64,000 nucleotides of DNA, taken from positions 15,566-79,565 of the forward strand of contig JBKHAH010000003.1 of assembly GCA_046542995.1 (NCBI GenBank), given 5' to 3'. Source of the DNA: Bacteroidales bacterium (GTDB lineage Bacteria; Bacteroidota; Bacteroidia; Bacteroidales; Tenuifilaceae). The position numbers were made by a program, and so were the translations under genes. Positions 15,469 through 57,703 of this stretch are shown here, piece after piece; the stretch's first letter is position 1, and every line of letters begins with the position of its first letter. The notes beneath the pieces are model-generated. The model was not told the origin of the DNA. It saw only the letters and a list, made by a program, of their open reading frames with translations, and did no database searches.

Positions 15469-15753
15469 AGGGTATATCTTTTGTGTTAATGTACAAAGAT
15501 ATATATTTTTCCTGCTCAATGAGTATGTAGCAATTTTTTTTGGGCGGAATGGTGTTATAAAAGATAAAGCAAATACGCTTGGTTGCTTCAACCTTTATGT
15601 TTCTAAAAACATGGAGAACTGCTCAGTGCCCACCTCAGCGTCTGGTTTCGCCTGCCCGACTGCTGCGGTCATGTGTGGGGAGAGCAGGAAGGTAGCCAAT
15701 CAATCCCCCGATGGTTATCGGAGCAACCAATCAATCAACCAGAACAGCTTGCA

Positions 15754-45462: not shown

Positions 45463-48400
45463 TTATTTTTTTCTGGGTATAGGCACCTTAATTTTACCTA
45501 AAAATTCAATCGACTTTTTAATTACTTCAAAATAAAGCATGAAGTATAGTATGATGCTCATAAACCATATAAAGCAAACATTGAACCAAAATGTGTCGTA
45601 GTAGCTACCCAAAAAGTATTTTCTTGGAGCCAGGAAGTGTGATCTGAAATCGAGTTGATGATTTGGTATAGGATCCCTGTATATGGGATCGTACTGTTGA
45701 ACTAGTTCTCCCTTGTATTGTAGTATCTTGTTTTTTTCAAAAATCTTCATGGCCAAATCGGCTATACTTTCATTGTGGTAAGCTCTACGTTTAGCTTCGT
45801 ACAGTTTAGGATTTGTTTCTACAAGGTGTGTTATTAGCTTGTCGCGTTTACTGTTGGCCGTTTGGAATATTTTATTGTAATGCTCTTTAAGCTGCTGAAG
45901 GTAATCAATAGTGCCAAAGTAAACCTCCTGGTCGAAATCATTCGAATTGAGGTTGTCCATATATCTGTAGGGAATAGCTGGAACCAGATAGTTAGCCTCG
46001 TTAAATAGTGAATTCCTGAGAACTAGAAGGTTCTCCTTAAACTCTTCAGTTGCCTCATCGTTTTGTTCATTGCTATTAATATGTTCGTAGCATTCATCAA
46101 GAATTTTTTCCAACTCTGGAATGTAATATACAGTTTTGTAGTCGGCGTTTCGCTCCACCTTCTCTATATCGTAGAAGGTCTTATGGAAATCGTTATTCTT
46201 AAATTGGTGTACAACTAGCGCCTCATAGCCCCATTTTGTAACCATAAACTCTGCAATTAGTGGCACTCTGCCAAAACTTCCAACGGCGCGGTTTAACTTC
46301 TCAAAGCTAAACATTGCTCCGGAAAGCACCATCATGGGGATCATTAGCAGGGGGATTACAATATATATGGTAACGGCAGAGTTGAATGTTGCAGAAATGT
46401 TTAAGCCTAAAAGATTAGCAAAAACGGCAGTAGAGAAAAGCACCAGCCAGTACTCAAAATTCATACCTCTGAGTTGGAGTATTCCATTGGCAATAAGCAC
46501 AAATGTTATGCACTGGATTGCCGAGAGTACAACCAGAATAAATATCTTGCTAAACAGGTACGATGCGCGGCTCAAGTTTAGGAACGCTTCGCGTTTAAGA
46601 ATTTTCCTGTCGCGGAAAATCTCCTCGGCGCTCACTGTTAATCCAATGAACAGGGCAACAATAAGCGCCATAAATATGTAAATGGGGATATTCTCGTTCT
46701 CCCTAAAAATGTAAACATCAGAATTCGGATCTGCTATATATCGAATAACAAATGCGAGGATGAAACCCAGAATGGGTGTTTCAAGCATGTTAAGTACGAT
46801 ATACTGCGTGTTGCTTACCTTTGAGAGAAAATCGCGGGTGGTATATATGAAGAACTGCTTAAGTTTTGATGGGATATTTAGCGATTTTGGCGGTGGCTCC
46901 GTTTCTCTTGGTACACTTTTCAGCTTAATATTCTCACTAAAATGATCCTCCCATTTGGGGGGGGATATTTTTCGGGTTGGGGTGTAGCGACCAAACTCAT
47001 CCACCACCTTCGCTTCAATGATATTGAATATAAGTTCAGGATTAACATTACCGCAGGTTGGGCATTCCCCCTGATCGCTGTTAATCTGCATGTCGATGCG
47101 CTTAAAGTACATCACCGCTTCAACGGGGTTGCCGTAGTATATCATGTATCCACCCGTATCAAGAATCATCATATTGTCAAACATCTTATATATGTCTGAC
47201 GATGGCTGGTGAATTACTACAAAGATGAGTTTTCCCTTAAGCGTAAGCTCTCGAAGAAGGTCCATCACGTTTTCCGAGTCCCTGGACGATAGGCCAGATG
47301 TTGGTTCATCGACAAAAAGGATGGCGGGTTCGCGAATTAGCTCAAGCGCAATGTTCAGCCTTTTTCTTTGCCCTCCGGAAATCATTTTGTTAAGAGGTGA
47401 GCCTACTTTTAAATTTTTACGTTCGTAGAGACCTAGGTTCTGAAGCGTTTTGTCAACGAGTTGGGTAAGTTCTTCCTCAGATTTATCCTTAAAGCAGAGC
47501 TTGGCATTGTAATAAAGGTTTTGGAATACGGTGAGTTCCTCAATAAGAAGATCGTCCTGAGGTATTACGCCAATAACTCCTTCAAGGTTCTCCTTTTCAT
47601 GATGCAGGTCAATTCCGTTTATGGTAACTTTCCCTGTTGTGGGCACCTCAATGCCTGCCAATACATTTAGTAGGGTGGTTTTTCCTGCACCGCTAGCTCC
47701 CATTATGCCAATGAGCTTGCCTTGCTCCTCGGCAAAGTTGATATTGCGTAAGCCTATGTCGCCACTTTTAAATTTAAACCCAACATCTTCTACCTCGTAC
47801 GATATGCGTATGCTAGTATCGTCGGCAAGGTAATGTGCCACAACATCGGTGTAGTATATGGGTTTACCTTTGGGAAGTTTAATGGAGCTGCCATTGGCAA
47901 ACAGGTATATCCTTTTTTTGTTGATTGGAAGACCATTAAGGAAAATTTCCTCGTTACCGGTGTACCTCAGGAAGTATAGGTCTTCGCTTTTTATCTGAAG
48001 TATGTATAGGTGCCCATCGAGGGCTTCGGTTGGAATGTGCTTGCAATGCTCTCCCTTGTCCTCGTTATCGTGTATGGTAAGTATGCTGGGGTAATCAAGA
48101 TCCTTCGGGTCATTGTTTATGACGAAGTTTTCGATATCGGTAAATTCTTCTTTGGTAAGCTTAAATACGTCGGCCACCGTATTAATAATAGCCATACGTT
48201 GCTCGGTGAATTTTCTATCGGCATTAACCAGCTCAAAGAGGCGAACCAGTACAACAACCTTCTGTTTCTGGGTTAGGGTTTTGTTAATTTTTTTGCATAT
48301 ACCCAAAATCTTAACTGAGTCTTTAACCGAGGTTAGCTTGACCTTTTTAGGCTTCCCATCCGCCTCCCCGTTTTCTTTATCCTGTTTTAGCCCGGCATGC

Positions 48401-48558
48401 TGGTCAAAAAGATCAATATATTCTCCAACAGCCTCATCGTTAACCTGCTGCAACAAGAAGTTGACAACGTACTCGCGTTCGTTGGACTCAACACCTTCGT
48501 CCTGCTTTGCAATAATTGCAAAGAGCTGCATTAAAGCCTTGAGAATTTCTTCACTCAT
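45463..48558 (-). CDS. ABC transporter, fused ATPase + ABC-2 permease (ABCG-like order) with TerB-like N-terminal region and an unassigned beta-rich linker
   Basis: 1031 aa. Walker A GASGAGKTT, signature ISGGQRKR, Walker B ILFVDEPTSGL, then about 6 TM helices. N-terminal FAIIAKQDEGVESNEREYVVNFL resembles TerB-type helical repeats. Confidence 0.85.
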   Translation of the reverse strand: MSEEILKALMQLFAIIAKQDEGVESNEREYVVNFLLQQVNDEAVGEYIDLFDQHAGLKQDKENGEADGKPKKVKLTSVKDSVKILGICKKINKTLTQKQKVVVLVRLFELVNADRKFTEQRMAIINTVADVFKLTKEEFTDIENFVINNDPKDLDYPSILTIHDNEDKGEHCKHIPTEALDGHLYILQIKSEDLYFLRYTGNEEIFLNGLPINKKRIYLFANGSSIKLPKGKPIYYTDVVAHYLADDTSIRISYEVEDVGFKFKSGDIGLRNINFAEEQGKLIGIMGASGAGKTTLLNVLAGIEVPTTGKVTINGIDLHHEKENLEGVIGVIPQDDLLIEELTVFQNLYYNAKLCFKDKSEEELTQLVDKTLQNLGLYERKNLKVGSPLNKMISGGQRKRLNIALELIREPAILFVDEPTSGLSSRDSENVMDLLRELTLKGKLIFVVIHQPSSDIYKMFDNMMILDTGGYMIYYGNPVEAVMYFKRIDMQINSDQGECPTCGNVNPELIFNIIEAKVVDEFGRYTPTRKISPPKWEDHFSENIKLKSVPRETEPPPKSLNIPSKLKQFFIYTTRDFLSKVSNTQYIVLNMLETPILGFILAFVIRYIADPNSDVYIFRENENIPIYIFMALIVALFIGLTVSAEEIFRDRKILKREAFLNLSRASYLFSKIFILVVLSAIQCITFVLIANGILQLRGMNFEYWLVLFSTAVFANLLGLNISATFNSAVTIYIVIPLLMIPMMVLSGAMFSFEKLNRAVGSFGRVPLIAEFMVTKWGYEALVVHQFKNNDFHKTFYDIEKVERNADYKTVYYIPELEKILDECYEHINSNEQNDEATEEFKENLLVLRNSLFNEANYLVPAIPYRYMDNLNSNDFDQEVYFGTIDYLQQLKEHYNKIFQTANSKRDKLITHLVETNPKLYEAKRRAYHNESIADLAMKIFEKNKILQYKGELVQQYDPIYRDPIPNHQLDFRSHFLAPRKYFLGSYYDTFWFNVCFIWFMSIILYFMLYFEVIKKSIEFLGKIKVPIPRKK

Positions 48559-48600: not shown

Positions 48601-48984
48601 TTAACTAAGAGTATAGCTTATCTGCTCAAAAGGAACATCAACAATATCTGCATACTCTTCACCGGCCTCCTGCATATCTTCGTCATCCTCAGGGTAGTAC
48701 CAGTTAATCAGAACTTCCTTCCCATCCTCATGCATCTCTTCGAGCTTCATAAGAATATCCAGGAGTAGCTTTGAACTGGCAGTATTAAAGTACACCAGCT
48801 TAAATGAGAAGATGGTTTTTGCATTTGGGCTTGCAGCGTACTCATCGAGCCAGTTTAGTATTGGGTCGTAAAAAGCCGTGACATCCTCCGGTAACGAACG
48901 ACCAGATATTTCGAAAATGTCATTCTCTGCATCCAAAATTACGGTTGGGGTATCGTCAGTACCCAAAATCTTTATGGTCTCCAT
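48601..48984 (-). CDS. SiaC-like regulatory phosphoprotein (DUF1987)
   Basis: 127 aa. ILGTDDTPTVILDAENDIFEISGRSLPED...FYDPILNWLDEY and YFNT(68)ASSK match the DUF1987/SiaC pattern. Confidence 0.8.
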   Translation of the reverse strand: METIKILGTDDTPTVILDAENDIFEISGRSLPEDVTAFYDPILNWLDEYAASPNAKTIFSFKLVYFNTASSKLLLDILMKLEEMHEDGKEVLINWYYPEDDEDMQEAGEEYADIVDVPFEQISYTLS

Positions 48985-48995
48985 AAGTCAATTGT

Positions 48996-49571
48996 TTACT
49001 CGTTTCTGGTGATTGTAGATGTTAAAATAAAAAAGTGTGTCTCCTCGTCAATAGGCAGGAAGTGGTATTCCAGGTTTCGACCGGTTTTTCTGGCAATATC
49101 GATAAAGCCTAAACCTGCGCCTCCTTTCTCCGAGAGCCTTCCTTCTCTCATTTGCGTTTTGTAAAGCTCCTTAAGCCCATTTTTATCAAGGGTATTAATG
49201 TGATCGAGGATTTTTGTGAGCTCCTCAATCTTGGAGTTTTCAATTACGTTGCCCGTGGTAACGTGATACTCAATTTCGCCCTTGCTCACCATGAATATCC
49301 CTCGGCCTGCAAACAGGAAGTCGTCTGACCCGAAGCTGTCGGCATGCTTACTGATGTTCTGAAGGCACTCTACCATAACATGGAATACCTTCTTTTGCAC
49401 CTGGTTCGACTCCTCCTCTTTTGCCATATTGGACTCCGTGAGGGAAGTGAAGGCCTTGGTGATTTGATGGGTAATCTCACCCTCATACACCAGAGTGATT
49501 TCATGAGCTTTCATCGACTTGTAAAAGTCGTAAACAAACTCAAGAAAACCTTTAACATTTCTTTTATCCAT
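48996..49571 (-). CDS. SiaB-like Ser/Thr protein kinase (GHKL/anti-sigma-kinase fold)
   Basis: 191 aa. C-terminal G-box GGAGLGFIDIARKTG. 11 nt upstream of the DUF1987 gene and 38 nt downstream of the PP2C gene. Confidence 0.7.
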   Translation of the reverse strand: MDKRNVKGFLEFVYDFYKSMKAHEITLVYEGEITHQITKAFTSLTESNMAKEEESNQVQKKVFHVMVECLQNISKHADSFGSDDFLFAGRGIFMVSKGEIEYHVTTGNVIENSKIEELTKILDHINTLDKNGLKELYKTQMREGRLSEKGGAGLGFIDIARKTGRNLEYHFLPIDEETHFFILTSTITRNE

Positions 49572-49609: not shown

Positions 49610-52246
49610 TTAGAATTCAATTCCTATAGTGAGAACATCGTCAATCTGCTTGTTATCTCCCATGTACTCTTCAAAGTCTTTAGAAAATAAATCGTTAAAT
49701 TTTGGCATTGTTAGTTCCTGATTCTCTACTATTAGCTCTCTGATGCGTACTGGTCTGTATTTTCTCTTGTCTTCACCTCCAATTTGGTCGGGCATGCCAT
49801 CGGAGAAGAAGAATATCTTATCGCCCTGCTTAATATCAATCTGGTAGTTGGTGAAATCTTTCTCTGGCTTTTTGGGATGTGGTATTCCACCTATGGCTTT
49901 CCTGTCGCCCTTGTACTCGTGTAGTTCCTTGTCTCTAAGCAGGTAAAGCGGCCTGTGAGCCCCAGAATACTGCAGTTCCTTCTTTTTTAGGTTAATTTTA
50001 CAGAGTGCAATATCCATGCCATCGCGAGCATCGGCATCTATCCGATCTTGCTTTAGCGTTTTTCTTACGTTATGATGGAGTTCATCAAGTATCTTCGATG
50101 CGGAGTAGCTAACATCGTGGTCAACTACGTTGTTTAGAATGAAGTAGCCTATAAACGATAGCAGTGCGCCAGGAACACCGTGGCCTGTACAGTCAACTGC
50201 TGCAATATATACATAGTCTTCCTTAACGAAGAACCATGGGAAATCTCCACTTACTACATCTCTTGGTTTGTAGTATATGAATGATTTGGGCAGGTACTGG
50301 CGAATAGTTCTGTTGTTAGGTAGAATTGAGGTTTGGATACGCTGCGCGTAGTTGATACTTTCGGTAATTTTTCGGTTCTTATCCTGAATCTCCTGCTCAA
50401 TTCTTTTTGCATCGGTAATATCATGACCAACAAAAAGTATGGTCTCCAGTTCGTTTTCGTTAAACTCAGGTATGGCAGATATATGCATTATCGTGTCGCC
50501 AACTTTTGAGGAGAAGGTAAGATCATCTTCAACATTGCTCTTACTGGTTTTAATGCTTTTTATGGTTTCTTTAAGGAACGATGCCAGAACTTCGTTCAGT
50601 TCAACCGAGTTTAGCGTTTGGTTAATTAGCTCCTTAACTGGTATGCCAAGATACTTCTCAACCATTGGGTTTGCATAAAAGAACTGACCGCTGGTGTTGA
50701 GGCGCATAATCATATCGGGTGAGTTCTCTGATAGTGCCTGCATCTTACTACGCATACGCTCTTCCTTCTCAGCTCTCTTGCGCTCCGTAATATCTTGTGA
50801 GTTAAGAATAATCCCATTTATTGCAGGGTCATCAAGTAGGTTGCGCCCTGTTACCTCAAGAAACAGCTTGGTACCATCCTTCTTCATAAAGGTGTACTGG
50901 ATGGTAATGGGTATTCTGGGCGAGTCGAGCAGTTTTTGGAACATGCCGTTAAGTTCCTGCTCTCCTTTGCGGGTAAGACGATCAATATCTTTTCCGCTCA
51001 TCATCTCATCGGGTGTGTATCCGAGTATTTTAGTTACCGATGGGCTTATGTAGGTTAATTTAAGGCTGCTGCTATATATTGAAATAATTTCAGATGCGTT
51101 TTCAAGCAGTGAATGGATTCGTTTCTGGGCATTTTCAACCTCCTGAATTTTTGATTCCAGCTGAATGTTTGATTTTTCAAGCTCTTCGTGTGTGGCCCTC
51201 ATCTCCTCAGCATTCTGCCTTAGCTCCTCCTCGTTCTCTTTTAGTTCCTGAGTCATTTGCTGAGCTTCATGAAGGAGCTGCTCAGTTTTTTGATTTATGC
51301 GGAGGTTAAATATGGTGCGAGCAATAATCTCGCCCATTTCTCTTAGGAAACGAATGGTTAGCTCTGGTATACTATCTTCAAGCGAGGCAAACTCAATTAC
51401 ACCTTGCAGCTTCTCATCGGTAATGAGTGGTACTATTAGTAGGGTCTTGGGTTTTTTATCGCCAAGTATTCCTGATGTGATGGAAACATAGTCCTCGGGA
51501 ATTTCTGTGCGGTACACAATATCCCTTTCGTAGGCGCATTGGCCTATTAAGCCTTGCCCAATCTTAAACTCTTGATTTATATACTTCTTTCGATTGTATG
51601 CGTAGGTTGCGAGGTTGGTTAGTTTCTCCTTGTCGTCATCATAAATGTATAGGGCTCCTTGTATAATGTTGATGTAGTTTATAAGCTTAACAAGCACTTC
51701 GTAGGATAGTTCTCCAATATTGTTGTGCAGTCGTAGTATGTATGAAACTTCATCTTTCCCTTTTGTAATCCAGCTTTGTTCAGACTCTTTCTTGTTGTTT
51801 TCTAGGAGGTTGTCGCGCATTACAAGTAGCGATTTACCCAGAATATCGTCTTCGTCGCTTATTTGAAAAGGAGCGTTGTAGTTGCCTTCGCCAATTGTTT
51901 TTGCGAAAAGGGCATTCTTGTTAATATCCTGATCTCTTTGGGTTATTTCATCCTCAAGAAACGACACCTTCTCTTGATGCTTTTTAAGGCTTAAATATGT
52001 GATGTAACCAAAAAGAATGGGGAGTATGTCAATAATCCATAAGGCCGGGTTGGTTACGTGGAGCTTTGCTACTCCGGAAATGGATAATGCAATTCCATGC
52101 GCAGAGAGTTCCAGTGCCCATGCAATAATAACTATTAGCAAACCAACCGTAGCGGCTATAATAACCTTCTGGGTTACGGCCTTGTTGATTATATCCGGTG
52201 ATGTTTTACTATGGGTTATCATACTATTCCTTTGTACTGTTGCCAA
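49610..52246 (-). CDS. Membrane-anchored GAF - coiled coil - PAS - PAS - PP2C (SpoIIE-type) protein phosphatase (SiaA-analogous)
   Basis: 878 aa. Two N-terminal TM helices. GAF with ITSGILGDKKPKTLLIVPL. Two PAS blocks. C-terminal PP2C motifs VSGDF, VDCTGHGVPGALLS, DGMDIAL, FSDGMPDQ, DDVLTIGIEF. An alternative start MITHSK at 52222 would leave 1 nt after the upstream stop. Confidence 0.85.
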   Translation of the reverse strand: MATVQRNSMITHSKTSPDIINKAVTQKVIIAATVGLLIVIIAWALELSAHGIALSISGVAKLHVTNPALWIIDILPILFGYITYLSLKKHQEKVSFLEDEITQRDQDINKNALFAKTIGEGNYNAPFQISDEDDILGKSLLVMRDNLLENNKKESEQSWITKGKDEVSYILRLHNNIGELSYEVLVKLINYINIIQGALYIYDDDKEKLTNLATYAYNRKKYINQEFKIGQGLIGQCAYERDIVYRTEIPEDYVSITSGILGDKKPKTLLIVPLITDEKLQGVIEFASLEDSIPELTIRFLREMGEIIARTIFNLRINQKTEQLLHEAQQMTQELKENEEELRQNAEEMRATHEELEKSNIQLESKIQEVENAQKRIHSLLENASEIISIYSSSLKLTYISPSVTKILGYTPDEMMSGKDIDRLTRKGEQELNGMFQKLLDSPRIPITIQYTFMKKDGTKLFLEVTGRNLLDDPAINGIILNSQDITERKRAEKEERMRSKMQALSENSPDMIMRLNTSGQFFYANPMVEKYLGIPVKELINQTLNSVELNEVLASFLKETIKSIKTSKSNVEDDLTFSSKVGDTIMHISAIPEFNENELETILFVGHDITDAKRIEQEIQDKNRKITESINYAQRIQTSILPNNRTIRQYLPKSFIYYKPRDVVSGDFPWFFVKEDYVYIAAVDCTGHGVPGALLSFIGYFILNNVVDHDVSYSASKILDELHHNVRKTLKQDRIDADARDGMDIALCKINLKKKELQYSGAHRPLYLLRDKELHEYKGDRKAIGGIPHPKKPEKDFTNYQIDIKQGDKIFFFSDGMPDQIGGEDKRKYRPVRIRELIVENQELTMPKFNDLFSKDFEEYMGDNKQIDDVLTIGIEF

Positions 52247-53027
52247 TTGTTAAAAGATGTTCTGTGAAAAACTGACCCAATGCCTCAAATACTTTTACGT
52301 TGTCCTTCTCAAAGGGTTTAAACGATGCCAATTCTAGTACGCCTTCACACTCGTTGCTGGAGTTTAAAAAAGGTACCAGAAGAAGATGATTGGGTGACCC
52401 TTCTCCAAGACCTGAAACTATGGTTATGTAGTCATCAGGGACATCAGAGAGATTTAGGGTTGTCTTATTTTTTGCTACCTGTCCAGGAAGAGTTTCTCCT
52501 TCAGCAAAGTTTTTTGGTGTTTCTTCGGAAAAGAAAGCGTATGACGCTAAGAAGGAGAATTCTGAATTGTTGGGTTCTTTTTTAAAGAATACGCCCTGAA
52601 CTATATCGTGTTCTTTTGCAATATTGGAGAGCATTTTTTCTGTAAAGACCTCAAGGTCTTCAAAATCATCTGATGGGATTAACTTTTCTGCCTCTGCCTT
52701 GTAATTAATCTCCTGTTTTGTAGAATCTTTTTTCTTCTCACCGTTTTTAGTATCCTGTTTTTTCTGATTCTCTTGAATGCTCTTTTTTAGCTGCTCAAGC
52801 TGCTGCTTGTTACTATTTGAAGCATTAATGGCTGTTATAATGATTTGAAAAAAAAGTATGCCAATAGCAGCAGATGCAACTAGCAAAATGATAGCCAAAA
52901 CTGGTATTTTTGTTTGGTACTGTGCCAGTTGATTTTGTAGGCTAAAAAAAACACCTGATACGCTTATAATCAGCAGAACCAAAAGGATGCCGTAACTAAG
53001 TCTGGAATTGTTGGAGAAGAATCTCAT
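52224..53027 (-). CDS. Membrane-anchored GAF-only protein
   Basis: 267 aa. Two TM helices, K/Q/E linker, and a GAF paralogous to the two flanking sensors (VPDDYITIVSGLGEGSPNHLLLVPF...GVLELASF). Confidence 0.7.
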   Translation of the reverse strand: MRFFSNNSRLSYGILLVLLIISVSGVFFSLQNQLAQYQTKIPVLAIILLVASAAIGILFFQIIITAINASNSNKQQLEQLKKSIQENQKKQDTKNGEKKKDSTKQEINYKAEAEKLIPSDDFEDLEVFTEKMLSNIAKEHDIVQGVFFKKEPNNSEFSFLASYAFFSEETPKNFAEGETLPGQVAKNKTTLNLSDVPDDYITIVSGLGEGSPNHLLLVPFLNSSNECEGVLELASFKPFEKDNVKVFEALGQFFTEHLLTIGNSTKE

Positions 53028-53039
53028 AAGGCACCAAAT

Positions 53040-53606
53040 TTATTGATTTTGTTTTATGCTTTGAAGAAAACGAATAATTTCATCGGTTTTATATACGTAA
53101 TCAACCTTAGTAAGTTTAAGCGATGATTCTGTCATGGTCTTTACCTGACATTCACTAGGATCCTGAACAATGGTTTTTCCGTTGTAATCTTTTATTCTCT
53201 TTAACCCATAAGCTCCATCTTTATTAGCTCCAGATAAAATAATGCCAATGAGTTTTTCACGGTAAACCTGAGCGGCAGTTGTAAAAGCTAAATCAATTGA
53301 TGGCCTGGAATGGTTAACTGGCGGCTCGGTTGAGAGCGCTATCTTGTTTCCAAGCTCAATAAACATATGATAGTTTGCTGGAGCAAGGTATGCTTTGCCT
53401 GGTTTTATCTGGTCTTTATCATAAGGTTCAATTACGGGTATGGCTGATTTAATTGAAAGCGCCTCTACAAATCCGCTTCTAACATGTTTTAACCTATGAA
53501 GGTTAAGAAGCACAGGTAGTGGAAAGTTCTTTGGCAAAGAACTAAGTATTCTGGTAATTACTTGAAAACTACCAGCCGAACCACCTATTATAACCGCTTT
53601 ATACAT
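53040..53606 (-). CDS. cheB: CheB-type protein-glutamate methylesterase/glutaminase, catalytic domain only (no receiver domain)
   Basis: Ser (IIGGSAGS), His (LNLHRLKH) and Asp (LSGANKDGA) triad contexts present. Start set at MYKAVIIGG; longest ORF reaches 53651 and overlaps cheR. Confidence 0.85.
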   Translation of the reverse strand: MYKAVIIGGSAGSFQVITRILSSLPKNFPLPVLLNLHRLKHVRSGFVEALSIKSAIPVIEPYDKDQIKPGKAYLAPANYHMFIELGNKIALSTEPPVNHSRPSIDLAFTTAAQVYREKLIGIILSGANKDGAYGLKRIKDYNGKTIVQDPSECQVKTMTESSLKLTKVDYVYKTDEIIRFLQSIKQNQ

Positions 53607-53613
53607 TATCTGA

Positions 53614-54444
53614 TTAACCTGTTTTTTTCTTGTAAATTTTTTCACCGTCATTTACTACGGTAAACTTATCGCTACAATTTGTGTTTTCTAAAGTCTCTTT
53701 GGCTCCCAGTACCATAAAACCTCCTGGCGATAAACTCTCGTGAACTGATTTAATGGCTTTATCTTGTAATATAGTATTAAAATAAATAATTTGATTTCTG
53801 AACAGTGCAAGTTTTATGCTTGATGGGGCGTTGTTGTAAAGCGTATCTTGCTTAATAAATTTCACATCTTTTATAAGATCCTTGTCTAATATAATGAATC
53901 CATTATCATCGTATGAGTAGTAATTAGAATATTTGCCTTCACACTTGGTTCTGTCATAGTTGGCTTCGTTTACCTCAAGTTGCCTTGCATCAATTTTGCC
54001 CTCCTGTATTTTCTTAATTGTTTCGTCGCTAAAAACAGAAACAAAGATACTAAAGTGTTCGAGTAAATTCATCTCTTTGAGAAGAATGCATAACGAGAAG
54101 AGCTCTTCGCCTGAATCGAAGGAGGCTACCCAAATTTTTGGTTTAGAGGTGCTTTTGCTTATTATTGGTATAATATCATCATATAAGGCACGCCAGAGCG
54201 ATGGGTCTCGGAACATTTCTGTGGTTTCAGGGGTAATGTCCTTGAGAAACTGCTCAAAGAATGATTTGTTGCTTTGTAACCTTGAGATAAGAACTTCGGA
54301 GTCTTTAAGACCATTTTTAGTTATTATATCCTCAAGCCTACGTTTAAAAGAGGTGAGCGCATAGTCTCTAAAGTCATAGCCGTATGTTTCCAGCAATGCT
54401 TTTATAATGTTCCTTGTTTCTACTATGCCAATTTCGTAACCCAT
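53614..54444 (-). CDS. CheR-like methyltransferase, divergent paralog
   Basis: CheR_N region and TEMFRD motif present. The SAM-binding motif reads IWVASFDSGEE instead of the canonical IWSAGCSTGEE. Confidence 0.8.
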   Translation of the reverse strand: MGYEIGIVETRNIIKALLETYGYDFRDYALTSFKRRLEDIITKNGLKDSEVLISRLQSNKSFFEQFLKDITPETTEMFRDPSLWRALYDDIIPIISKSTSKPKIWVASFDSGEELFSLCILLKEMNLLEHFSIFVSVFSDETIKKIQEGKIDARQLEVNEANYDRTKCEGKYSNYYSYDDNGFIILDKDLIKDVKFIKQDTLYNNAPSSIKLALFRNQIIYFNTILQDKAIKSVHESLSPGGFMVLGAKETLENTNCSDKFTVVNDGEKIYKKKTG

Positions 54445-54458
54445 GTTAATTATAAGGC

Positions 54459-56840
54459 TTATTTGTTTTTACGCAGTTGATTCATTAACTCGTCAATCTG
54501 CTTTTGTAGCATTAGCTCCTTCTCTTTGCTTTCAGTTATGTTTATACCTAGGTTGATTATTTTAACAACCTTTCCTGATTTATCACGTATTGGCGTGTAT
54601 TGTTCCGATATCCATACAGTTTTGCCTTTTACGTTTAGGGAGAAGTCTCTTTTTTCAATATTGCCTTCCAGAATGCTGTTCCAGAATTTTTTATACTTTT
54701 CAGGTTTTGTTTTTGCTTCAAAATCAAGTTCATGATGCAGCTTCCCTTCAATCTTGTCTTTGCTATCGCCCAGAGTTTCTACGTTCTTATTGTTTATGAA
54801 TAGTATTTCTCCTTCTGGGCTTATTTCAGTAACAAGGCATGTATTATCAAGGGCCTGAAGTAGCGCGGCGATTTCCTCTTCTTGTTGTTTTGTGATTTTT
54901 TGCTCTTCTTGGAGTTTAATTAAATTCTGCTCTATCTCTTCGGCTTGCTGCCTCGCTTTAAGCTCAATATTTTTGGAGTCTGTTATGTCCTGTCCGAGAT
55001 AGAATATTTTGTAAAGCTCGTTATTTTCATCAAAGGCTGGTGTAATGCTTGCCAGGGTATAAAACTCCTCGTTATATTTATTCAGCCATTTTAATGTACC
55101 CTTAAACGTTTCTCCTTTGGTAATCGTGTTCCAGGCCTCATTGAATGTTGTAGTATCATCAGGATGAATAAACTCTTTTATTGTTAGCTCTTCAATACTG
55201 TCCTTAGTGTGTCCAAATTTTTCAAGGAAGTTTAGGTTTGCAAACTGGAAGTTGCCCGATTCAGAGAGTTCACAGAAAAGGAGTGCTTCGTTAATTGCAG
55301 AAGTAATGCCCTCCATTTCAATTGTCTTACGTGCCATCTCTTCCTGTGTAGCTTGCATCTCTTCCATGTTTTGCCTCATCTCCTCTTCTTGTGCCGCCAT
55401 CTCTTCTCTTTGTTGTTGCGATTGCTCAAGAAGTTGTGTTGTACGAATGCTGTTTTTAACCGCTGATAACGTTGAGGCTATGTTTTCACCAATCTTTTCA
55501 ACAAATTCAATTTCATGTTGAGAGAGGTTGTTGAAGGATGCTAATTCGATTACACCAAAAACTTTTTCTTCCAACTTTAGAGGAACTATCAGCAGGGTGC
55601 GAGGAGGAGCTTCTCCTAACCCGGATGTTATTTCAATATAATCTTCAGGAATTTCTTTTAGGTAAATGGTTTGCTTCTCAACAGCACAATTACCAACAAG
55701 CCCTTCGCCAAACAGAATTGTTTTTTTCTTTGATTTTTTCCGGTTGTATGCAAAGGTTGATAGAAGTTCGAGTTCGTGTTCGTTATCTTCGTTTTCATTA
55801 ACGATAAACAGTCCGCCTTGGTTCGCATTAAGGTAGTTGACCAGTTCCTGAGTTACATTATCCGACAGGGCTTCAAGCTCATCATTATTTTGCCTTAAAA
55901 TGTCGCCAAATTTTGCCAGGCCGGAGTTTACCCAGTTTCTGCGTTGGTCCTCCTGCTTGCGTTCTTGCTCTTCCAACGAGGCTTTCTTCAGATTAGCTCG
56001 CATGCTTAATAATGAGTTTCCTAAAGCATCATTTGGCCCTAAAGGAGCATATTCAGTATTGAGGTTATTTTGCCCAATCTGCGTGGCAAATTCCGCTGTT
56101 CTGCTCAACCCCGCAATAAGCTTGTTAAGGGATGAGGCTATTTGCCCTACCTCATCGTTCGTACTATGTTGTATTTTTTGGGGAGTGTCCCCTTCTGCCA
56201 TTCTTGTGAGGCTCGAATTAATTTTTGAAATGGTTTTTATAACGGGGCGAAGTGCGTAATTAATTGCAATGGCAGACAAAGTTATACCAGCAAAAATTAT
56301 TAACAATAAAATTATTCTATTAGTCTTTAGGTCCTCTGTTATTTCCGAGAAGTTAACCGGGATTGCAATAAATGCATCATAAGAGTCTATCTTTTTAAAA
56401 TAAACAATAATTTTGTGTCTTTCATTCCTAACCTCCTGATAATATTCGAAAAACCCTTCTTTGTTTGGGTCAGCAAACACTCTGTTTAACCTTTCGGTTG
56501 GGTACTTTTGACCCTCACGGTATAAATGGATTAGGTAGTTACCCTCTTTACTTACCAGAAACGGGTAATCAGTTGAATAAAAGGCGGGCTTATTGAAGTA
56601 ATTCTTAAGCTGAGCATAGTCTTGATGCGAGAAGCCGTCAGGAGTTTGCTTGTCAATTTCAGTAATAATATCTGAAATCTTTTGCAAATAAACCTCCATT
56701 TGCGTTTGCGTGGTATTGAGCAAGCGTTTTAGGCTGAAACTATAAACCGTGAAAGCAGCCGCGCTAAATAAGAGCACGAGAAGCGTAGTTACTACAAGTA
56801 GTATTCTGTGCTTTATTTTAATGTTATTTAAAAACTTCAT
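54459..56840 (-). CDS. Sensor protein: TM - Cache-like periplasmic domain - TM - HAMP - GAF - coiled coil - PAS - coiled coil - PAS, no recognisable output domain
   Basis: 793 aa. HAMP (LRPVIKTISKINSSLTRMAEGD...NDEVGQIASSLNKLIAGL), GAF (ITSGLGEAPPRTLLIVPL), two PAS blocks. Ends without a kinase, phosphatase, GGDEF or MCP-signalling domain. Confidence 0.8.
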   Translation of the reverse strand: MKFLNNIKIKHRILLVVTTLLVLLFSAAAFTVYSFSLKRLLNTTQTQMEVYLQKISDIITEIDKQTPDGFSHQDYAQLKNYFNKPAFYSTDYPFLVSKEGNYLIHLYREGQKYPTERLNRVFADPNKEGFFEYYQEVRNERHKIIVYFKKIDSYDAFIAIPVNFSEITEDLKTNRIILLLIIFAGITLSAIAINYALRPVIKTISKINSSLTRMAEGDTPQKIQHSTNDEVGQIASSLNKLIAGLSRTAEFATQIGQNNLNTEYAPLGPNDALGNSLLSMRANLKKASLEEQERKQEDQRRNWVNSGLAKFGDILRQNNDELEALSDNVTQELVNYLNANQGGLFIVNENEDNEHELELLSTFAYNRKKSKKKTILFGEGLVGNCAVEKQTIYLKEIPEDYIEITSGLGEAPPRTLLIVPLKLEEKVFGVIELASFNNLSQHEIEFVEKIGENIASTLSAVKNSIRTTQLLEQSQQQREEMAAQEEEMRQNMEEMQATQEEMARKTIEMEGITSAINEALLFCELSESGNFQFANLNFLEKFGHTKDSIEELTIKEFIHPDDTTTFNEAWNTITKGETFKGTLKWLNKYNEEFYTLASITPAFDENNELYKIFYLGQDITDSKNIELKARQQAEEIEQNLIKLQEEQKITKQQEEEIAALLQALDNTCLVTEISPEGEILFINNKNVETLGDSKDKIEGKLHHELDFEAKTKPEKYKKFWNSILEGNIEKRDFSLNVKGKTVWISEQYTPIRDKSGKVVKIINLGINITESKEKELMLQKQIDELMNQLRKNK

Positions 56841-56863: not shown

Positions 56864-57703
56864 TTACTTTTTAATGTACGATTGCCCCATCTTTTCAAAT
56901 TTATTTGCCCATGGACCAAGGATGGTTTCATGCATGCCTAAGAGCAAAATGCCTTTTGTGTAAAGGTTTGAATGAAACAGGTCAAAAACTTTATTCTGTA
57001 ATGAGTAGTTAAAGTAAATAATCACATTCCTGCATAAAATCAGGTCAAACTTTGCAAAAAACAGGTTGCCATCCTTTACCAAATCGTGCTTTCTGAAAAT
57101 AGGCTTTTCAGTTAAAAAGCGTTTCATGGTAATGGTATCCTTTGATTTATCGATGTCAAAATATGTTTCGTAGGGAACATCGTTAAATTCTTCGTAATTA
57201 AGGGGGTTCTGCTTAATTACTTTATCAAAATTATCAAGATATCCAATGTTAAAACGATATTTGAACTCGCCTTTCTTTGCGGCCTCCAGAACGTCGGTGT
57301 TTAAATCGGAGGCAAATACCTTGGCCTTTTCAAACAGCCCCATCTCATTTAGAAGAATCATCATGGAATAAACCTCCTGCCCTGTTGAGCAGCCAGCATG
57401 CCATATGTTTATGTTCTTGTTGTTTTTAAACCTTGGGAGTATCCGTGATTTAAGCATATGCCATACTTGTGGATCGCGGAAAAGCTCAGTTGTATTAACG
57501 GTAATCTCTTTTACAATGCTTTCTGTAAAGATGGGGTTTGTTTTCATTGATGATATAAGACCAGCTATATCAAGGTTGAAGTCCGTGAGAACTTTCTGCA
57601 ACCTGCGCTTCAAGGACTTATCTGAATACTCGCTAAAATCGTATTTTGATGAGTTCTTTAAAGCAGATACAAAATACTGTAGATCCTGATCTGATATCAC
57701 CAT
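56864..57703 (-). CDS. cheR: CheR protein-glutamate O-methyltransferase (canonical motifs)
   Basis: 279 aa. TELFRDPQVW, INIWHAGCSTGQEVYSMMILL, LILCRNVIIYF. Confidence 0.9.
   Translation of the reverse strand: MVISDQDLQYFVSALKNSSKYDFSEYSDKSLKRRLQKVLTDFNLDIAGLISSMKTNPIFTESIVKEITVNTTELFRDPQVWHMLKSRILPRFKNNKNINIWHAGCSTGQEVYSMMILLNEMGLFEKAKVFASDLNTDVLEAAKKGEFKYRFNIGYLDNFDKVIKQNPLNYEEFNDVPYETYFDIDKSKDTITMKRFLTEKPIFRKHDLVKDGNLFFAKFDLILCRNVIIYFNYSLQNKVFDLFHSNLYTKGILLLGMHETILGPWANKFEKMGQSYIKK

Follow-up and report, generated by a model that had tools for sequence, protein, structure and literature searches.

We analyzed a 64,000-nt window of DNA from a Bacteroidales bacterium (positions 15,566 to 79,565 of JBKHAH010000003.1, forward strand; all coordinates refer to this window) and found that a SpoIIE/PP2C phosphatase encoded there carries, between its GAF and PAS domains, a long helix with a stripe of glutamates and a strongly conserved EEMRAT motif, in an operon with two CheR genes and one CheB gene. 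Judged from sequence, we give an even chance to the reading that this phosphatase is a plausible CheR/CheB substrate, a methyl-accepting coiled-coil (MAC)-type protein with a phosphatase output. E348, within the invariant LRQNAEEMxxT block, is the core predicted site, and E334, E341 and E355 are likely further candidates. The gene, its helix and its motif are as follows:

49610-52246, minus strand: gene for the phosphatase, with the order transmembrane segment (TM)-GAF-helix-PAS-PAS-SpoIIE/PP2C (Pfam; 878 codons from TTG)
51092-51364, minus strand: continuous helix with the Glu stripe, residues 295-385 (91 residues; AlphaFold2 and heptad phase analysis)
51191-51208, minus strand: EEMRAT hexapeptide, residues 347-352, with E348 as the predicted methyl-accepting Glu (translation and pattern mapping)

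The phosphatase is deposited at NCBI with its start at M9 (52222) as the 870-aa protein MFP4555433.1, an exact sequence match annotated as 'PAS domain S-box protein' in a Bacteroidales metagenome-assembled genome, so the residue numbers used here run 8 above those of MFP4555433.1. Pfam orders its parts as the TM, a GAF domain (179-312), the helix, two PAS domains and a SpoIIE/PP2C domain (676-876); the C-terminus reads ...TIGIEF and has no pentapeptide tether. A preliminary description of this DNA had placed EEMRAT at residues 347-352 in an E/Q-rich segment, residues 321-376 (51119-51286), and both positions and numbering hold, as does the sequence it quoted, TEQLLHEAQQMTQELKENEEELRQNAEEMRATHEELEKSN, which is present in identical form in the translation. 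In an AlphaFold2 monomer model, run on a 17-sequence alignment (A1) with a mean pLDDT (per-residue confidence) of 88.7, the predicted helix (fragment residues 142-232) begins as the last GAF helix, has EEMRAT in its middle and ends at the first PAS domain. One heptad core position is occupied by A328, L335, L342, M349, L356, L363, V370 and I377, and the other by L324, M331 and the polar residues N338, N345, T352 and S359. Flanking this hydrophobic core, a single heptad position holds E327, E334, E341, E348, E355, (Q362) and E369, a stripe that includes four consecutive [QE]E[LM] units at an exact 7-residue spacing; by this phasing, E348 is one member of the stripe. Residue 341 (51221-51223, minus strand) lies in the same stripe, one heptad before E348.

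A helix so rich in E, Q, A and T could match a methylation consensus by chance, and in shuffles of the 56-residue segment EExxA[ST] arose in 2.4% and the looser [EQ][EQ]xxA[ST] in 5.8%. Against a chance match, EExxA[ST] occurs only twice in the 21,005 residues of all window open reading frames of at least 150 codons, as EEMRAT and as EEMQAT, and the latter stands at the equivalent position of a 793-aa paralogue encoded three genes upstream, whose layout is alike except that it has no output domain. Together with the invariance of the motif in orthologues down to 48% identity and its recurrence in thousands of homologous modules, both described below, the shuffling and the position in the paralogue led us to reject a chance origin as exceedingly improbable.

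The motif is conserved well beyond this contig. Matches of the homologous-protein search were fragments of at most 402 aa, and architectures were read from genomic loci. Homologues retrieved with the GAF-helix segment as query conserve NEEELRQNAEEMRATQEEL better than any other stretch of the helix; in alignment A1 (17 rows), N345 never changes, and conservation is at least 90% at E348 and T352. A genome scan with one genome per species gave 80 loci from Bacteroidales and Cytophagales, with identity down to 48%; the operon is present in the great majority of these species representatives, and cultured carriers among them include Ohtaekwangia kribbensis and Chryseolinea lacunae. The scan pattern demanded an intact EE.LRQN.[EK]E, which forces part of the LRQNAEE invariance in this set, and we therefore discount the conservation of those columns. 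Outside the pattern, the 73 unique orthologous helices have M349, T352 and L356 at 100%, E355 at 97%, E354 at 93% and A351 at 79% (otherwise V, S, L, I or M). T321 and L324-L325 are invariant among the orthologues, in which E348 is without variation. The preliminary description had regarded loss of the motif from an otherwise retained helix as evidence against its proposal; we found instead that no part of the helix is better conserved than the motif.

Residue 341 behaves differently, being E in 47%, V in 27% and Q in 26% of the 73 orthologues. Interchange of E and Q is typical of those sites in methyl-accepting chemotaxis proteins (MCPs) that CheB deamidates; modified positions of MCPs tolerate E or Q, and recognition residues are constrained. 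The interchange at residue 341, set against the unvarying E348, and the presence of four heptad-spaced acidic pairs would suit a variant in which the helix is a substrate and E348 itself is unmodified, EEMRAT serving as a recognition element for sites at E334, E341, E355 or the Q residues. We regard this variant as unlikely. The hexapeptide consensus E-E-x-x-A-S/T fits the phosphatase helix only at residues 347-352, and a non-significant hhalign match to the E. coli chemoreceptor Tsr pairs E341 with Tsr E304 and E348 with Tsr Q311, both genuine Tsr sites, the second pairing counting weakly for E348.

The genomic setting provides the second line of evidence. The preliminary description was right to place CheR and CheB in the phosphatase operon: the string of genes around it includes CheR twice and CheB once, and on the minus strand it runs CheR1, 793-aa paralogue, CheR2, CheB, TM-GAF, phosphatase, SiaB, SiaC, TerB-ABC. 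Across the 80 loci, in the same order, we found CheB in 75, CheR in 73, a SiaB-like gene in 75, SiaC in 74 and, following SiaC, TerB-ABC in 71. Of the 73 loci with CheR and CheB, 32 have no motif-bearing gene other than the phosphatase (in 27 of these 32, the sequence extends 3 kb or more upstream of the first CheR), which makes the phosphatase the obvious candidate substrate there.

The motif also co-varies with CheR2 and CheB. Four loci without CheR2-CheB ahead of the phosphatase gene have a degenerate motif in the phosphatase (NAKEMKHT in L049, NAKQMKIA in L081, NAEAMRRG in L083 and NAKQMKQT in L084), and in L049 and L084 the upstream paralogue retains NMEEMRAT; with four such loci, the comparison is informative but small. 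L082:368-2201, a version of the operon from a metagenome, has CheD and full receiver-CheB genes upstream of the usual GAF-PAS, CheR, CheR and CheB, in an assembly fragmented by frameshifts.

Around the phosphatase, the operon encodes the following:

56864-57703, minus strand: CheR1, canonical CheR methyltransferase (Pfam CheR 2.8e-37)
54459-56840, minus strand: 793-aa paralogue, Cache/HAMP-GAF-helix-PAS-PAS without an output domain (Pfam; EEMQAT at 55347-55364)
53614-54444, minus strand: CheR2, divergent CheR without the usual Asp that binds the ribose of S-adenosylmethionine (SAM) (Pfam CheR 2e-20; 5FTW alignment; orthologue comparison)
53040-53651, minus strand: CheB methylesterase, catalytic domain only, 203 aa (Pfam CheB_methylest 1.2e-48)
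52224-53027, minus strand: TM-GAF membrane protein, 267 aa, no coiled coil (Pfam GAF_2)
48996-49571, minus strand: SiaB-family Ser/Thr kinase (DUF6272; NCBIfam SiaB_fam_kinase 176.6 bits, cut-off 85)
48601-48984, minus strand: SiaC-family phosphoprotein (Pfam SiaC 2.1e-43, 147.3 bits versus 24.5)
45463-48558, minus strand: TerB-ABC (ABC-2 type) transporter, 1031 aa (Pfam)

The two CheR proteins differ in their active sites. The SAM motifs GCSTGQE and ASDLN of CheR1 are intact. In CheR2, compared with B. subtilis CheR (5FTW), the strand 'ATDID' is replaced by 'VSVFS', which removes the SAM-ribose Asp, and the loop 'GCSTGEE' by 'SFDSGEE'. Among loci L001-L059, this Asp is absent from the CheR2 orthologues in the sampled Bacteroidales loci in which CheR2 is separate from CheR1 (L001-L051), and it is retained in CheR1 orthologues, in the single CheR of Cytophagales loci and in that of L054; CheR2 thus looks catalytically degenerate. 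CheB, whose open reading frame shares 38 nt with the 3' end of CheR2, aligns with T. maritima CheB (3SFT) at the Ser/His/Asp triad positions. It has no receiver domain, so demethylation could not be controlled by phosphorylation as in E. coli. The TM-GAF gene lies between CheB and the phosphatase, with its stop 1 nt ahead of the phosphatase ATG (M9); we found it in 77 of the 80 loci, a count in which some best matches fall on the GAF domain of a neighboring gene. Downstream, the SiaC homologue conserves T68 (LVYFNT68ASSK versus LLYLNT68SSIK in P. aeruginosa), and the TerB-ABC transporter is the likely downstream target. Pfam detected no CheA or CheW domain among the scanned operon proteins.

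Several findings weigh against methylation of this helix, and a first group concerns its relation to chemoreceptors. The preliminary description had called EEMRAT a canonical MCP methylation consensus. The older hexapeptide does fit; 'canonical' was an overstatement, as the 10-residue consensus [ASTG][ASTG]xx[EQ][EQ]xx[ASTG][ASTG] matches nowhere in the phosphatase or the 793-aa paralogue, and at EEMRAT it is the upstream half that fails. PF00015 (MCPsignal) is absent at E <= 0.01 from both helix-bearing window proteins and reaches only E = 0.09-0.12 in two homologues. A search of the PDB with helix profile A2 returned no MCP, only designed helical bundles. With hhalign against Tsr residues 290-519, we obtained one 13-column alignment, EELRQNAEEMRAT against EETAASMEQLTAT of Tsr 303-315, which is non-significant (E = 0.14, probability 0.4%). 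We accordingly claim no homology to MCPs, but a motif-level resemblance in the correct register.

The statement of the preliminary description that no MCP is present was confirmed for the 64-kb window, in which tblastn with Tsr residues 290-519 found no MCP signaling domain. The query was validated against PDB 6s1k and 1qu7, with MCP genes of L019 and L021 as the positive control. Those genes (L019:18529-19083 and L021:19091-19711, from two rumen Bacteroidales) are genuine MCP genes located ~8.5 kb downstream of the phosphatase gene, and some carriers of the operon therefore also possess classical chemoreceptors.

A second group of adverse findings comes from the operon and from the distribution of the motif. 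The invariance of the columns in the scan pattern is partly ascertainment. In the Draconibacterium loci L033 and L034 the motif is intact and there are no che genes within 10 kb upstream. A partly degenerate motif is found in three CheB-containing loci: L086 has CheB yet reads NAEIMETT, and two visibly fragmented assemblies with CheR/CheB read NA[AN]EML.A. The block is, moreover, anything but specific to this phosphatase. A profile of the helix alone matched 3,834 clusters (50% identity) at E <= 0.001 and 1,698 at E <= 1e-10, with the module consensus AQEEE[LM]RQN[ML]EE[LM]xATQEE[ML]xR. The top 150 matches average 2.7 copies, and repeat-rich proteins hold at least 8 copies by pattern and up to 10 profile matches, spaced ~150-170 residues apart in helix-PAS repeats or 42-70 residues apart (42, 63 or 70) in pure helix arrays; examples of such repeat proteins are P0087 (residues 500-873) and P0139 (residues 409-558). 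Among 39 sampled top matches, 36 combine GAF and PAS domains without enzymatic output, one has a kinase ATPase (HATPase_c) and none has SpoIIE.

General linkage of the motif to CheR/CheB was tested in a metagenome scan seeded with repeat modules and was not found. The scan gave 80 loci, 26 of them at least 15 kb long; CheR/CheB lie within 10 kb in four of these long loci, each of them the same operon as in the window, and in none of the other 22. The remaining metagenome loci encode sensor-GAF-helix proteins with zero to four PAS domains. Six loci (L120, L141, L147, L150, L154 and L159) encode CHASE3/HAMP-GAF proteins that end 25-40 residues past the motif, with the conserved helix as the C-terminal 'output' and no CheR/CheB within 10 kb.

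These distributions would suit a reading in which the block is an unmodified structural signaling-helix or docking element, by which, for example, the many receptor-like GAF-helix-PAS proteins without output bind the phosphatase or some other partner that they share, while CheR and CheB act on another protein (the 793-aa paralogue or an unlinked one). Near-invariance of ~17 residues across thousands of diverged proteins and repeats exceeds that of MCP methylation sites and is more like the partner-binding hairpin tip of MCPs, so the block could be a docking or oligomerization surface. The polar N338, N345, T352 and S359 at one core position would suit specific higher-order or hetero-association; the prevalence of output-less proteins among the sampled matches, the distance from CheR/CheB in most long metagenome loci and the missing significant MCP homology point the same way. 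Against this explanation, an operon with these enzymes must have a substrate, and in 32 of 73 loci no candidate other than the phosphatase bears the motif; the motif is also degenerate in the four loci that have lost CheR2-CheB. A lack of linkage says little, since MCP genes themselves often lie apart from cheRB: the dispersed motif genes resemble MCP genes scattered away from cheRB, a pattern that equally allows a role other than methylation. Docking and methylation are also not exclusive, as any substrate must offer CheR and CheB a place to dock. We consider a purely structural or docking role possible, at clearly less than an even chance.

Weighing these findings, the earlier proposal that the helix is a methylation substrate keeps part of its force. 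It is favored by the conservation of the motif, the synteny with CheR and CheB, the loci in which the phosphatase is the sole candidate and the four loci with a degenerate motif; it is disfavored by the lack of MCP homology and by a motif that is not specific to the phosphatase and mostly lies away from CheR/CheB. It is also a rediscovery rather than an original idea, as it matches the published MAC concept. The methylation of MAC proteins is itself a prediction, with no experimental demonstration for any MAC protein as of 2022, which likewise speaks against taking methylation for granted. Our literature search retrieved no relevant later experiments on MAC proteins and no publication that connects CheR/CheB with GAF and SpoIIE in Bacteroidetes.

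If the phosphatase is a CheR/CheB substrate, we infer the following mechanism, from the modification and its sites to the direction in which activity changes and the target of SiaC. The operon CheR, with CheR1 as the canonical enzyme, would methylate glutamates of the stripe, and the receiver-less CheB would strip the methyl groups. Neutralizing the acidic stripe may alter the packing of the helix, and this change, passed on through the two PAS domains to a dimeric SiaA-like PP2C domain, would set its activity toward phospho-SiaC (T68), with the SiaB-family kinase working against the phosphatase. SiaC would then act on a partner, most likely the TerB-ABC transporter encoded directly downstream rather than a diguanylate cyclase.

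A wider version of this mechanism would make the operon the core of a chemosensory-like system that has PP2C instead of CheA as its output: many sensor-GAF-helix-PAS proteins without output, encoded at scattered places in the genome, would be its receptors and couple to PP2C via the shared invariant helix, CheR1, CheB and the degenerate CheR2 would adapt the helix by methylation, and the SiaB/SiaC switch would gate TerB-ABC. We think this rather improbable; were it true, methylation adaptation would have been grafted onto Ser/Thr phospho-signaling.

To our knowledge, CheR/CheB methylation is experimentally known only on chemoreceptors that control CheA. The operon offers a compact test case: it has two CheRs, a receiver-less CheB and either one or two candidate substrates in which the motif is sharply defined, and the removal of phosphate from T68 of SiaC-P provides a tractable biochemical read-out. 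Methylation of the phosphatase would mean that adaptation by methylation can feed into a partner switch built on a Ser/Thr phosphatase, one that probably controls a transporter, and would assign a function to a motif of thousands of Bacteroidota signaling proteins.

Compared with known systems, the phosphatase helix shares with the first methylation helix (MH1) of E. coli Tsr/Tar (Q297, E304, Q311) its heptad-spaced acidic pairs followed by hydrophobic and then by small or hydroxyl residues, so that EEMRAT resembles EQLTAT at Tsr 310-315, and it shares the partner enzymes CheR and CheB. It differs in having no MCPsignal domain, no significant sequence or profile similarity, no upstream half of the consensus and no pentapeptide tether. 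MCPs, furthermore, form an antiparallel hairpin and, in the dimer, a four-helix bundle, whereas the AlphaFold2 monomer model of the phosphatase has one continuous helix that runs into the PAS domain without a hairpin. S-helix linkers offer another likeness, as the phosphatase has a long helix of dimeric coiled-coil type from GAF to PAS and an S-helix-like '[KR]TExLL' at its start. The S-helix signature does not comprise the LRQNAEEMxxTQEEL block or the Glu stripe.

The closest published concept is the MAC class, predicted by Wuichet and Zhulin (2010) as intermediates between two-component systems and chemotaxis. As relayed in later literature, MAC proteins join receptor and kinase functions, MAC1 is fused to CheB/CheR, MAC2 has CheR and CheB encoded alongside, and MiST 3.0 holds profiles for both, which lie outside Pfam. 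Like MAC2, the phosphatase is a non-MCP signaling protein with a methylation-helix-like coiled coil, heptad-phased acidic pairs and dedicated, separate CheR and CheB genes, with no CheA or CheW among the scanned operon proteins. It differs in that its output is SpoIIE/PP2C feeding a SiaB/SiaC partner switch and in that the paralogue has no output domain; this phosphatase output and the continuation into SiaB, SiaC and TerB-ABC depart from the MAC description as far as the later literature relays it.

On the output side, the operon parallels the SiaABCD pathway of Pseudomonas aeruginosa (PMC7647112, PMC8457831). The PP2C domain of the phosphatase matches NCBIfam SiaA (prot_phos_SiaA) at 2.6e-50, with 171.7 bits over profile positions 397-654; with an equivalog cut-off of 700, this score falls well short, so the kinship with SiaA is at the level of the domain and not that of an orthologue. 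The SiaB-family kinase, the SiaC homologue with its T68 (phosphorylated in P. aeruginosa) and the A-B-C order of the genes extend the likeness. The inputs differ: SiaA has a periplasmic domain and HAMP, whereas the phosphatase has GAF-helix-PAS-PAS together with CheR/CheB. The position beside SiaC is held not by a gene for the SiaD diguanylate cyclase (GGDEF) but, as in 71 of the 80 loci, by the TerB-ABC gene, which may mean that a transporter, and not c-di-GMP synthesis, is what the SiaC-like switch controls.

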